A stretch of 21,040 nucleotides of DNA from the NCBI GenBank assembly GCA_026014495.1, contig JAOZIF010000079.1, positions 1-21,040 on the forward strand, read 5' to 3'. Below, one piece after another: positions 15,253 to 19,704 of this stretch. The translations under genes were made by a program, and so were the position numbers. The stretch is from Candidatus Bathyarchaeum sp. GTDB taxonomy: Archaea; Thermoproteota; Bathyarchaeia; Bathyarchaeales; Bathyarchaeaceae. Position 1 is the first letter of the stretch. Each line of letters begins with the position of its first letter. The notes beneath the pieces are model-generated. The model was not told the DNA's origin, did not search any database, and saw nothing but the letters and a program-made list of their open reading frames with translations.

Positions 15253-15300
15253 TCTTTATCCCACAACACAAAAAGTAGAGCCAGTTACGTCCTGACCGTT

Positions 15301-15792
15301 TTAGGGAGTCATCGGGAGAATATAGTGCCTTTTTTTACCTATCCAATCACCTATTAACGCGCCTAACCCAAAGCAAACTACAAAGCACAACACAGCAATA
15401 GGCCATGTCCCTGACTCGCCAATTAGCGCCGTTCTGTTTAGAACATAAATGCAGATTACCCATAAAACAAATCCAAGAGGCGTTATTCCCAGCAGTATGA
15501 ACAGTGCACGGTTTACTTTGAAAGAAGGTCTGACGCGGATATAGTATGCAAATCCCATGCACAGAAATGTTGCAACCAGTCCAATTACAGCTCTTTCCAT
15601 TGTTACGCCTGTAAAAAAAGGAAGAGCTAAACATAAAATGAGGGTCATTACCGCCGTAATTATCCAGTAAGGTTTCCACCACCTAGGCTTAGAACCTTTA
15701 CTTTCAGCCATTTTCAACTTACCTTTTGGCATGTTGCTTTCTTTGGGAAGCCAGCCCCGAATAAGCGATTTTAAACTGTTTTTTAGATTCAT
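15301..15792 (-). CDS. Hypothetical 4-TM membrane protein with N-terminal IRGWLPKE motif
   Basis: 163-aa ORF starting 4 bp after the upstream stop, with a basic N-terminus and four hydrophobic segments. Confidence 0.8.
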   Translation of the reverse strand: MNLKNSLKSLIRGWLPKESNMPKGKLKMAESKGSKPRWWKPYWIITAVMTLILCLALPFFTGVTMERAVIGLVATFLCMGFAYYIRVRPSFKVNRALFILLGITPLGFVLWVICIYVLNRTALIGESGTWPIAVLCFVVCFGLGALIGDWIGKKRHYILPMTP

Positions 15793-15796
15793 AATC

Positions 15797-16750
15797 TCAA
15801 CTCTGCAACAATTTCACGTTATCCTGTGTGGCTTGTCGTTTTTCCCGTATTTTGCGGCTTATGAACAATGCAACAGTTATGACTGCTGTAGCGACAACCA
15901 AAACCAGTTGGACGAAAAACCAGATGGTTGTCATGTTAACTCGAGCCCAAAAAATGTCCCAGTTAAAGAATTCAAGATTCAAGTTGTCTGAATACGAGCT
16001 TAACTCTAAACTTCCTCCAAGAAGTAAGACAATTCCTAGTTTTTTCAAGAGCACATCATTCAAAGAGTACCCCGAATACACAAGCATGCCCGTGTCGGGG
16101 TCGTAACCCAAAATCACGGACAGTGGCCAGCCTTCTTGTGTTCTTGTTAGATGCGACGAAACCATTACTGCAGTAACGCCGTACGGTTCAAGAGCTATCG
16201 AAGGATGCCCTGCTGTAGATTGTACATTTGCGGTTAACTGCCAATCTTGGGTTTCAGTTAACATAATGTATTGGTTTTTAGTTACGTTAGGATTAATCAA
16301 GAAAACTGATCGTGTAGAATCGACTACTAGATTACCGTCCACGATACTGCCGTCTATGGTTGCCTCTTTTGTAAATTTGTCACACTCCAGGGCGATTTTT
16401 ATGGTGCACTCGTTTCCGCTCTTTTCGGTAATCCAATAAGTCAGTGACAAATTTTTTGAGCTAATGTGGCTTCCGTCAGTTAAAACCATAATAAAAGAGT
16501 TGTTTTGTTGCAGTACGCCTTTTAATTCCACATAAGAAGAGTTGGGCGTGCTTTTGGCAATAGATGGCACGGATAATGGCGTCAAGGGGTTCATGAGCAA
16601 AACAACTGAAGAAAACAAAGCAACTGCTAAACTAGCCACAAGAAAGCCGACTACTGGAGTGGGTAGTTTTTTAAATTTAGTTTTTGGTATTTTTGGCTCT
16701 GCAGGAAGCCAGCCTCGGATGCTTTGCTCAAAAAAGTTTTTGAAGCTCAT
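15797..16750 (-). CDS. Hypothetical 2-TM membrane protein with N-terminal IRGWLPAE motif and large extracytoplasmic loop
   Basis: 317-aa ORF with an ATGA overlap with the HTH gene; TM near residues 31-53, about 220 aa of soluble S/T-rich domain, a second TM and a basic tail. Confidence 0.8.
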   Translation of the reverse strand: MSFKNFFEQSIRGWLPAEPKIPKTKFKKLPTPVVGFLVASLAVALFSSVVLLMNPLTPLSVPSIAKSTPNSSYVELKGVLQQNNSFIMVLTDGSHISSKNLSLTYWITEKSGNECTIKIALECDKFTKEATIDGSIVDGNLVVDSTRSVFLINPNVTKNQYIMLTETQDWQLTANVQSTAGHPSIALEPYGVTAVMVSSHLTRTQEGWPLSVILGYDPDTGMLVYSGYSLNDVLLKKLGIVLLLGGSLELSSYSDNLNLEFFNWDIFWARVNMTTIWFFVQLVLVVATAVITVALFISRKIREKRQATQDNVKLLQS

Positions 16751-17235
16751 GAACTCACCTCGGGCACAAGTTTGCCAAATATTATGTGAGCCAGTTTGGC
16801 GGGGTGCATTTCTGTTATGCCTTCTAATTCTATGCCCTGTTCTTTGGCGATGTCTAGGAGATAGTTTCGGGTCTGGTTGAGGAATTGTTTGTTTGTTATT
16901 TCTTCTGGGTTGTCGTGCCAGTACCAGACTTTGATTCCGTGGCTTGTGGTGTAGGTGATTATTGCTTTGCGTTTGAGTGCAGGGTGGTAGCCTAAGAGTA
17001 TGGCTTTTTTTGGGTATATTTTTGTTACTTGGAGGTCGTTTGCTCCTGCAACGTCTAGAAGGGTTGTGGATAGTTTTGCTTCTGCTGTTAGTCTTGTTTG
17101 GTTGATGTATTGTCGTGTGGTTTTGAGTTTAGTTGCTATTGTGGATACTGAGAATCCTTTGTTTAGTAGTGACCAGACTGTTTTTTGTTTTTGGCTTAGT
17201 GGTGATGCTAATGACTTTGTGTTCATAACAGTCAC
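16747..17235 (-). CDS. HTH regulator with sigma-70 region 4/LuxR-like N-terminus and uncharacterised C-terminal domain
   Basis: 'LSQKQKTVWSLLNKGFSVSTIATKLKTTRQYINQTRLTAEAKL' fits the LTxxQ...GxSxxxIAxxL...xAxxKL pattern. Start is GTG 17235 or ATG 17226. Confidence 0.75.
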   Translation of the reverse strand: MTVMNTKSLASPLSQKQKTVWSLLNKGFSVSTIATKLKTTRQYINQTRLTAEAKLSTTLLDVAGANDLQVTKIYPKKAILLGYHPALKRKAIITYTTSHGIKVWYWHDNPEEITNKQFLNQTRNYLLDIAKEQGIELEGITEMHPAKLAHIIFGKLVPEVSS

Positions 17236-17236
17236 G

Positions 17237-17258
17237 TGTAAATATCTGGATATTTACA
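17237..17258. promoter_or_regulatory. Perfect inverted repeat TGTAAATATC-TG-GATATTTACA; candidate operator
   Basis: 10-bp perfect arms lying between the minus-strand TATA-like TTTTAAATA (17261-17269) and the HTH start. Confidence 0.75.
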
Positions 17259-17367
17259 AATATTTAAAATTTGCTACACAACACAAAAAACAATACCTAA
17301 TTTTGGGTTAAACATTTAAACCGCCCCTACATCCAACATTCTAGAAACCTCAAGGAAGCTGGAAAAT

Positions 17368-18180
17368 ACGGTAAAGTGTCAACACTGTGGCGACGACGTT
17401 GTTCTCCCGTTCAAATGCAACTACTGTGGAGGCTACTTCTGCGGCGACCACCGAATCCCAGAAAGCCATAACTGCCCCGAAGCATGGAAAGCCAAAGCAC
17501 CACGAGAAGCCCCCCCACTAATAACCAACAAAGGCTGGTCTAAAACGCCATCATACAAATACACCATATCTTACACACCACAAACAGCCAGAATATTTGG
17601 ATTCAGCAAAATAGAACTCAAACATTTGCTCATTGGAACACTTCTAGTCCTAGGAGTTGGCTTAACATATTTCTTATACATCACAGATTCAACAGCAACT
17701 CCATTAATGATAGCCGGACTGACAATAGCCTTTGCCTTATCCTTTCTGCTTCACGAAATCGCCCACAAATTCACAGCACAACACTTCAACATGTGGGCAG
17801 AATTCAGGTTAACCCTGCAAGGAGCACTCATAACATTAGTCTCAGTGTTTCTTCCTCCACCATTCAAAATCATCTCTCCCGGAGCAGTAATGATTGTAGG
17901 CTCAGGAACAAGGGAAAGCATCGGAAAAACAGCCCTTGCAGGACCAGTAACAAACCTGTTACTTTCAACTGGATGCATCCTACTCGGAATGGCTACTCAA
18001 AATCTCTTCTGGTTTGTAGGCTTCATCAACGCGTTTCTTGCAGTTTTTAATCTCATTCCATTTGGCGTATTTGATGGCTTGAAGGTTTTCAGATGGAACA
18101 AAATATTTTGGGCTGCAGCGTTTATAGTAGCACTTGCGTTGACAATTTACAGTTATAGCCCTGCACTAGCAGCCTTTTAG
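17368..18180 (+). CDS. AN1-type zinc finger fused to site-2 protease (peptidase M50); apparent ACG start
   Basis: The frame is open from 17320. From 17368 it reads (M)VKCQHCGDDVVLPFKCNYCGGYFCGDHRIPESHNCP, then FSKIELKHL, HEIAH (HExxH) and NLIPFGVFDG (NxxPxxxxDG). The ORF track start at 17626 truncates the zinc finger. Confidence 0.85.
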   Translation, partial: TVKCQHCGDDVVLPFKCNYCGGYFCGDHRIPESHNCPEAWKAKAPREAPPLITNKGWSKTPSYKYTISYTPQTARIFGFSKIELKHLLIGTLLVLGVGLTYFLYITDSTATPLMIAGLTIAFALSFLLHEIAHKFTAQHFNMWAEFRLTLQGALITLVSVFLPPPFKIISPGAVMIVGSGTRESIGKTALAGPVTNLLLSTGCILLGMATQNLFWFVGFINAFLAVFNLIPFGVFDGLKVFRWNKIFWAAAFIVALALTIYSYSPALAAF

Positions 18181-18662: not shown

Positions 18663-19589
18663 CTAAATTGGAAGGACTAAACCAGCCAACTCGCCAAACA
18701 GCAGATAGCTTGACACAACATAGCCCAGAATTGCGCCGCTGCACAGGTAAGGCAGTCCTGCTTGTGGTTTTCCTTTGATTACAACTGACATGAGAACTGC
18801 AAAGCCTACAAGTGTGCCAATCATCACTGACAGTGCTACTAAAAGCCCGTTGTCTGGAACGTTTTGCAGTGCAGAAACAACCAGAATTCCAGGCATAACT
18901 ATGTCTCCTAAGCCCAAGAAGAAGGCTTCTCGTTCTTCTTTGTCTTCAATTTTTTCTTTTATTCCCTTTGTTTGTTTGAGCAAAGAATACTGTCGCGCTT
19001 TTGGTACAACCAGCATGACTGGTAATTTGAGGTCCATGACTGCGTCTGCAAGGTCGATCATGTGTTTTGTTTTGTATACTGAGATTGCGTCGTATATTGC
19101 TAGGCCAATGAGTAGGACGATTACCAGAAATATGCTAAGGGAGATTCCGAAGATTCCGATTGCGCCTACGCCAACGATTATTCCTGTCAGGTCTATTACG
19201 TACCATTCAGGATATTTTATTAATGCCGCAACCAAGATTGCCGCCGCGCTTATCGAGATTAGCAGTGCCAAGTCGGCGGAGACAACAAAAGATAGTAGTG
19301 GATAGAAGACAAAGAATGATGTGTACGCGATTGAGCCTAGTATGATGACTTGTATGAACTGTTTTTTCCAGAATTTGGCGATTAGAAGTATTGTAAGTGT
19401 GACCACTAACATTGTTATGAAGAAGACAAGCAGGTTTGTGGGGTCGTTTGGGTTTTCGAAAACGTCTAGTCCTGTTGCTTCGAAGGGCTGAGTTATCAGC
19501 ATGGACAGGCTGTGGATTACGATGAACAGTCCGCCCATCAGAAACATGGGAAAAACAGATGAACCCCTTTCCTTTTTTTCGTTGGACAT
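18663..19589 (-). CDS. Presenilin-family intramembrane aspartyl protease (PSH-like)
   Basis: Catalytic 'YDAISVY' and 'LGLGD', C-terminal 'PQAGLPYL', multi-TM; ATG 19589 is preferred. Confidence 0.93.
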   Translation of the reverse strand: MSNEKKERGSSVFPMFLMGGLFIVIHSLSMLITQPFEATGLDVFENPNDPTNLLVFFITMLVVTLTILLIAKFWKKQFIQVIILGSIAYTSFFVFYPLLSFVVSADLALLISISAAAILVAALIKYPEWYVIDLTGIIVGVGAIGIFGISLSIFLVIVLLIGLAIYDAISVYKTKHMIDLADAVMDLKLPVMLVVPKARQYSLLKQTKGIKEKIEDKEEREAFFLGLGDIVMPGILVVSALQNVPDNGLLVALSVMIGTLVGFAVLMSVVIKGKPQAGLPYLCSGAILGYVVSSYLLFGELAGLVLPI

Positions 19590-19704
19590 TTTCTTCTTAA
19601 CAACACAGTTACTCACTTATAGAGTTTATTTAATGTCAAGAAGTTTTGTGGATACGTTATTTTGATATACGTGGTTTGCTGTTCTTGTTGTGTGGAGATT
19701 TGCT

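Follow-up and report, generated by a model that had tools for sequence, protein, structure and literature searches.

A Bathyarchaeal operon coupling a candidate autorepressor with membrane proteins that share an N-terminal tag

In Bacillus subtilis, the autorepressor SdpR is sequestered at a cytoplasmic face of the co-transcribed membrane protein SdpI, which derepresses the operon (PMC2910880, summarising Ellermeier 2006). This pair appears to be the closest worked-out precedent for a three-gene operon found in the window, i.e. the whole stretch of 21,040 nucleotides analysed here, which belongs to a Bathyarchaeia contig with 41% GC. On the minus strand, the operon encodes in this order a regulator with a helix-turn-helix (HTH) domain and two membrane proteins, memA and memB (Table 1). 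Both membrane proteins start with a similar short peptide, hereafter the tag. The best reading of the data, to which a probability of roughly 0.55 is assigned, is that the regulator is an autorepressor whose C-terminal domain, of a new fold, would dock on the tags of the membrane proteins.

As in the SdpR/SdpI system, a small regulator gene is followed by a gene for a polytopic membrane protein in one operon, and a putative repressor-type operator is located at the operon's own promoter. In contrast, SdpR is a winged HTH protein of the ArsR type, whereas the regulator of the window combines an HTH of the sigma region 4/Tfx type with a new C-terminal domain. No ArsR or SdpI Pfam match was obtained for the window proteins. 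Furthermore, the binding region of SdpI belongs to one dedicated family, while the tag is short and present on many unrelated proteins, up to ten per regulator.

The locus had been labelled a candidate sigma/anti-sigma-like module in the initial annotation, on the model of bacterial extracytoplasmic function (ECF) sigma factors. Several traits are shared with such pairs: the sigma region 4 fold, a co-transcribed and often translationally coupled membrane partner displaying an N-terminal cytoplasmic segment, one transmembrane (TM) segment and a variable outside domain, a likely autoregulation, and the presence of cysteines in the ancestral form of the module. However, the regulator is devoid of sigma region 2, the rest of the protein consisting of a domain with four strands and three helices, and no zf-HC2, RskA or other anti-sigma Pfam match was detected in the partners at E ≤ 1. 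The tag is 19–25 residues long, whereas the helical anti-sigma domain extends over ~45–90 residues. In the cysteine-type modules described below, the cysteines are split 3+1 between both partners, while in ECF pairs the HxxxCxxC motif lies inside the anti-sigma domain. One regulator is accompanied here by many tagged proteins, and the position of the putative operator points to an autorepressor and not to a sigma-like activator. The sigma/anti-sigma label was therefore not retained. Archaea are not known to have sigma factors and make use of TBP/TFB.

The best match for the window HTH is provided by the Tfx family (Methanothermobacter Tfx, 1NR3; EnfR/TON_1525, 8HNO), archaeal proteins which resemble the regulator by their size (~150 residues) and by a basic N-terminal HTH similar to sigma region 4. 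Tfx is not known to have tagged membrane partners. The regulator gave no match with TFX_C (PF14601), and tagged membrane partners are not mentioned in the EnfR paper (PMC10570040). For the DUF1673 proteins of Methanosarcina, an N-terminal 'MGWCP motif' has been documented (PMC4158269). They are, like the proteins studied here, expanded archaeal membrane proteins with a short N-terminal motif around W-C-P: the sister modules described below use [WYF]C[PRQ]xP, with WCP at residues 10–17, and the window proteins GWLP, all of these motifs being short. The 'GWCP' start of DUF1673, to which the tag had been likened in the initial annotation, is thus a documented motif, and sister modules carry WCP-type tags. 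The family model PF07895 (DUF1673) matched neither memA, memB nor five WCP-tagged partners at E ≤ 1. The genome-wide search with PF07895 returned two other loci, both below the cut-off. A literature search on the regulator/tag system revealed nothing beyond the one-line MGWCP entry.

Every element of the observation reported in the initial annotation was confirmed in the sequence. The operon is tightly coupled as described, with the regulator stop and the memA start sharing ATGA at 16747–16750, and with the memB start placed 4 nt (GATT) behind the memA stop. The open reading frame of the regulator was called with a GTG start (16747–17235); the ATG at 17226 was taken as the start, since ~1500 homologues are 159–160 residues long. 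A resemblance of memA and memB limited to their N-termini had been claimed, and the BLASTP alignment was indeed restricted to residues 1–27 (14/27 identical, E 1e-6), the remainder being unaligned. The different topologies were supported by hydropathy analysis: memA displays two TM segments (33–51 and 279–297) separated by the ~230 residues of a large outside domain and followed by a short basic tail, while memB has four TM segments after the tag. The identical 11-mer GGAAGCCAGCC was recovered from both genes (15746–15756 and 16704–16714). When reverse-complemented, it simply spells the codons for G-W-L-P, and it lies within a 52-nt direct repeat with 71% identity.

The tag, with a total length of ~19–25 residues, consists of ~10 residues followed by (R/W)GW(L/V/I/F)PxEPKxPK, and is connected through a basic linker to TM segment 1. 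The motif is located at the extreme N-terminus, at a constant distance of 12–13 residues from the initiator methionine (GWLP occupies residues 13–16 in the window proteins), and G, W and P are invariant among the 18 tags compared. By the positive-inside rule, the tag is predicted to be cytoplasmic. In the 2.19-Mb host genome, [RK]GW[LIVMCF]P was found near the N-terminus only in the memA and memB reading frames. Elsewhere, the tag is carried by unrelated bodies of 103, 118, 163–174, 282, 310–349 and 803 residues with 1–6 TM segments, some of which display NosD/beta-helix (outside the membrane), PD40 or bPH_2 domains, which bears out the proposal that the tag is portable. Interchangeable sensor bodies had also been proposed. 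A one-to-one sensor model is difficult to reconcile with up to 10 tagged proteins per regulator and with tiny 2-TM bodies lacking a sensor domain.

No Pfam or PDB sequence match was obtained for memA. Its orthologues, often in tandem pairs, are 44–58% identical and occur in 7 of 24 genomes of the same genus. No named sequence relatives were found for the outside domain of memA (residues 52–278); a structure search in the ESM Atlas gave a weak lead to DUF3108-like/TapB-type domains and unnamed archaeal proteins (TM-score ~0.5–0.6). For the regulator, memA and memB alike, nothing above threshold was retrieved from Pfam, NCBIfam, PADLOC and PHROGs.

The HTH of the regulator (residues ~10–62) belongs to the sigma-70 region 4/LuxR/Tfx type, as initially annotated; the assignment is weak at the sequence level and clear in the fold match. 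Weak sequence matches were obtained with the Tfx model TIGR00721 (E 1.7e-4, 21.5 bits against a cut-off of 60.25, residues 12–46 only) and with GerE PF00196 (E 0.05, 13.7 bits against a cut-off of 23.5), while no Pfam family reached threshold. The profile of the regulator matched EnfR (8hno) with an E-value of 2.2e-4. The AlphaFold2 model, based on an alignment of 16 sequences, reached a predicted local distance difference test (pLDDT) score of 89 and shows helices at 12–62 (the HTH and a long helix), four strands at 66–102 and helices at 113–129 and 142–158. The HTH of the model superposes on EnfR 8hno_A (Z 8.7, root-mean-square deviation 0.9, 51 residues, 28% identity), on many sigma region 4 domains from sigma/anti-sigma complexes (Z 7–8.4), and on DesR, DosR, NarL and GerE (Z 6.9–8.3). 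The likeness to LuxR/GerE is at the superfamily level only.

The C-terminal domain (residues ~65–159), with four strands and three helices, was modelled alone from an alignment of 47 sequences with a pLDDT of 92. It has no convincing solved relative, since the best PDB match displayed a Z-score of 3.9 and Foldseek gave no match; neither 8hno nor 1nr3 was among its 50 best matches. With the whole regulator model, 8hno was aligned by Foldseek over 148 columns with a TM-score of 0.35–0.40. Several PH/EVH1-like structures were retrieved with the C-terminal domain at Z ~3 only, and are considered as a lead. About 1528 homologues of the regulator were found, the best 120 being 80–89% identical. When searched in 1.84 billion proteins, the regulator profile matched 606 representative clusters at E ≤ 1e-3. 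No convincing natural fusion of regulator and tag was detected among the 606 representatives, the long ones being other fusions or frameshift artefacts. Between the same genomes, the regulator is 76–89% identical as compared to 40–58% for the partner bodies.

The promoter of the operon was read directly from the sequence. A TTAAATA-type box, with an unchanged spacing to the start codon, was detected in 18/18 orthologous upstream regions. The palindrome between this box and the start codon is a perfect 10-2-10 repeat, for which one match was observed in the window against 0.01 expected. Its core (GTAAA-N10-TTTAC) occurs at the same place in 15 of the 18 upstream regions, the other three displaying a near variant. 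With the relaxed consensus TGTAAAyA-N6-TrTTTAC, this site was the only one in the host genome; an even looser form was found at 5 sites (10 when both strands are counted) against 10.6 expected, which corresponds to the chance rate. A wider regulon was thus rejected, as the consensus is confined to the operon's own promoter. Archaeal operators located just downstream of the TATA box are typical of repressors. Because of this position, the regulator is most likely an operon-specific autorepressor that would bind DNA at the palindrome.

Among 60 relatives searched, 13 close orthologues of the regulator were identified (70–86% identity). Each of these 13 genes shares 4 nt with the gene immediately downstream, whose product is a membrane protein starting with a GWhP tag (h being L, V, I or F). 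A hidden Markov model (HMM) of the tag (alignment A3, 30 columns) was searched over 301 Bathyarchaeia genomes with a threshold of E < 1e-3. It produced 32 matches, of which 29 are situated in co-oriented arrays headed by an HTH regulator gene; of the remaining ones, one lies 2.3 kb further on the same strand, one is adjacent but convergent, and one is an orphan. These numbers bear out the genomic association of the tag with the HTH family on which the initial proposal depended. The arrays comprise up to ten consecutive tagged genes (G203, G259, G271), and the 4-nt overlap with the preceding gene was observed in 41 of 89 tagged partners scored. The module is absent from IMG/VR and no virus association was found; IMG/VR, PADLOC and PHROGs gave no match for it.

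More distant paralogues of the regulator (29–39% identity) display a CxxC..C pattern after a conserved GIxVWY strand. Scanning of 185,579 species genomes with alignment A2 (alignment A1 being too diverse for this purpose) yielded 78 loci, nearly all in Bathyarchaeia. Two loci, L076 and L137 (DATLAV010000236.1 and DATLAV010000230.1), are regulator/WCP-tag modules in a bin labelled 'Patescibacteria group bacterium', which is probably a binning error. The genes following three-cysteine paralogues encode proteins with a start of the type [WYF]C[PRQ]xP, e.g. WCPQP, WCRRP or YCPQP. In a set of 101 unique regulator/partner pairs, the cysteine tag stands beside 73 of 76 three-cysteine regulators and the GWhP tag beside all 15 intact cysteine-less regulators. 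One additional cysteine-less entry accompanied by a cysteine tag is a frameshifted fragment in L139. At this locus and at L135, the regulator gene is apparently split or frameshifted, giving two HMM matches in different frames beside one tagged gene. Both types of regulator co-occur in genomes, even side by side (L108, L115), and each stands next to its own type of tag.

Homologous bodies bear different tags depending on the regulator, as seen with beta-helix bodies and with the body of memB. Without its tag, the latter is 45% identical over 134 residues (E 1e-36) to a protein of 158 residues (locus L071), which carries a WCRNP tag and is encoded downstream of a three-cysteine regulator. The three cysteine positions align with residues 110, 113 and 119 of the window regulator, i.e. 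with the loop and the first turns of helix 113–129. Their modelled geometry is that of a knuckle plus helix without a fourth ligand. In a quick maximum-likelihood tree, the cysteine-less regulators form one clade of 15 sequences with a long stem (support of 100 in the Shimodaira–Hasegawa-like approximate likelihood ratio test). A third paralogue group was found at L039–L045, L049 and L050 (same genus and family). It combines a regulator of 167 residues, harbouring three cysteines and one histidine, with a membrane partner of 245 residues carrying a bPH_2 domain.

Taken as a mechanism, the preferred reading would involve the following steps. The regulator, as a dimeric DNA-binding protein, would bind the palindrome and repress its own operon. 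Its C-terminal domain would dock on the cytoplasmic tags of the co-expressed membrane proteins, and a regulator held at the membrane would be removed from the operator, so that expression of the operon would track the tagged proteins, either in amount or in state. For the ancestral sister modules, a metal or Fe-S site common to both partners is a probable part of the contact, three of its cysteines being supplied by the regulator and one by the tag. All four cysteines are missing in the clade of the window, with a hydrophobic residue (here leucine) at the position of the tag cysteine. The 3+1 cysteine pattern suggests such an intermolecular site for the ancestral form; the argument relies on one evolutionary event and does not hold for the third paralogue group. 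Gene order, the tag and its confinement to the regulator family, the agreement of tag and regulator types, the conserved operator-like palindrome and the folds are observed, whereas DNA binding at the palindrome, binding of tag and regulator, the common metal site and the sense in which expression is regulated are inferred.

A more general proposal is regarded as tentative. It describes a plug-in system of archaea, in which any membrane protein gaining the ~19-residue tag would be both controlled and read by one cognate autoregulator. The ancestral 3+1 cysteine site for metal or Fe-S would resemble the zinc clasp of CD4–Lck and might allow redox or metal sensing, the contact would be purely hydrophobic in the clade of the window, and the MGWCP motif of the Methanosarcina DUF1673 proteins may represent another case of this system.

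Four points weigh against docking of the regulator on the tags. The cysteine switch is a single evolutionary event, as the cysteine-less regulators form one clade, so that the co-variation of tag and regulator could be due to co-inheritance within a cassette. In the third paralogue group, the N-terminus of the partner is conserved (…KPPIKRVTSGKIFKPSKAF…), does not resemble the other tags and contains no cysteine despite the three cysteines of the regulator; a shared Cys4 site is thus not universal. The C-terminal domain has no recognisable peptide-binding fold, the PH/EVH1-like matches being at Z ~3. Finally, with up to ten tagged proteins for one regulator and a repressor-type operator, derepression would run away unless the availability of the tags is controlled.

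The main rival explanation is judged unlikely. The tag would be an assembly or sorting handle, acting through tag–tag contacts or through recognition by a general factor for insertion, processing or modification. The HTH protein would be only a local autorepressor that never touches the tag, and the match between tag and regulator types would follow from cassette inheritance. The location of the cysteine switch on one branch agrees with such a handle, as do the third-group partners lacking a cysteine and the behaviour of the module as a cassette, which is present or absent between the M50 gene and znuC within the genus and occurs in other contexts elsewhere. Long arrays of tagged proteins also suit a shared handle more than a one-to-one partner. 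Against it, the tag hardly ever occurs apart from the regulator family, a generic signal should be far more widespread among membrane proteins, and no other candidate reader is conserved with the module. Moreover, loss of the tag cysteine went along with that of the three cysteines of the regulator, although other paralogues in these genomes have retained their cysteines.

A second rival explanation is regulated intramembrane proteolysis, by which membrane anti-sigma factors are typically released. The M50 site-2 protease and/or the presenilin-like signal peptide peptidase (SPP) would cleave the tagged proteins and free either the regulator or the tag, in the manner of RseP acting on RseA. Both proteases are indeed encoded within 2.5 kb upstream of the operon in the window and in its closest relatives. 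However, M50 lies beside znuCBA in G005, G010 and G013, which have no module, and the modules of G016, G019, G008 and G060 are near neither protease. Proximity to the proteases is thus independent of the module, and from this synteny a system linking the module to the neighbouring M50 and SPP was ruled out; a protease encoded elsewhere could act in trans. Altogether, proteolysis is considered very unlikely. Still less credible is a conserved nucleic acid element, i.e. a motif in the RNA or DNA of each 5' end that would ensure translational coupling or be bound by the regulator, with the 11-mer as the functional unit. The 52-nt repeat with its identical 11-mer speaks for it, but the palindrome consensus occurs only at the promoter, and synonymous codons vary across the 18 tags while G, W and P are invariant. 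The codons of the conserved residues (six for Arg, four for Gly, three to four for Pro) cover all synonymous possibilities, which indicates selection on the peptide and not on the nucleic acid, and the motif reading of the 11-mer was rejected on this basis.

Signalling from the membrane to transcription is poorly understood in archaea, and the Bathyarchaeia, an abundant and uncultured class, are not known to possess a counterpart of bacterial sigma/anti-sigma or SdpRI-type systems. The pairing of regulator and tagged proteins recurs across this class and may connect membrane proteins with gene control in a way not described before. Both partners represent undescribed families, namely a regulator with a C-terminal domain without solved relative and a portable tag, and the comparative signal is unusually clean. 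If confirmed, docking of the regulator on the tag would explain why unrelated membrane proteins of one operon share their N-terminus and would represent a compact, modular pair of tag and reader. It might also account for the MGWCP motif, so far unexplained, of a large protein family in Methanosarcina.

Table 1. Coordinates of the operon, its control elements and neighbouring features in the window
Feature	Position	Strand	Description
TATA-like box TTTTAAATA	17261–17269	-	Operon promoter
Palindrome TGTAAATATC-NN-GATATTTACA	17237–17258	.	Perfect 10-2-10; putative operator between TATA box and start codon
Regulator gene	16747–17226	-	159 residues; N-terminal HTH and C-terminal alpha/beta domain
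memA	15797–16750	-	317 residues; N-terminal tag, 2 TM
memB	15301–15792	-	163 residues; N-terminal tag, 4 TM
memA tag	16676–16750	-	First 25 residues: short amphipathic stretch, then RGWLPAEPKIPK
memB tag	15718–15792	-	First 25 residues, including RGWLPKESNMPK
M50 site-2 protease	17626–18180	+	184 residues from first canonical start
Presenilin-like SPP	18663–19616		
13-mer TTTTTGTGTTGTG, upstream copy	17277–17289	-	7 nt upstream of operon TATA box
13-mer TTTTTGTGTTGTG, downstream copy	15262–15274	-	Just past memB stop, before TATA-like box of znuC

The operon is flanked upstream by genes for the M50 site-2 protease, rpS10, the presenilin-like SPP and an M42 peptidase, and downstream by znuCBA, a synteny kept in the closest relatives only. 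In genomes of the same genus devoid of the module (G005, G010, G013), M50 is located directly beside znuCBA, whereas the modules of G016, G019, G008 and G060 are found in other contexts. The module is an insertion/deletion cassette in a conserved backbone. Since the genes for the proteases and the Znu transporter occur irrespective of the module, they are not parts of it, and a link to the Znu transporter was rejected, znuCBA belonging to the backbone. The 13-mer TTTTTGTGTTGTG occurs in three copies in the host genome, two of which flank the module and may mark the boundary of an inserted cassette. T/G-rich stretches similar to the upstream copy were observed in the upstream regions of the closest relatives only. 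Together with the direct M50–znuCBA junction in genomes without the module, these copies suggest insertion of a cassette and duplication of an element near the promoter.

The open frame of M50 is 278–325 residues long in five relatives, and the true start of the window gene is probably a non-canonical codon located more upstream. At four loci (L052, L053, L054 and L056, in G023, G001, G006 and G009, respectively), a second ABC ATPase, ~28% identical to ZnuC, is encoded between the tagged genes and znuCBA. In G009, this gene separates the memA-like from the memB-like gene, which indicates that untagged transporter genes can join the array.

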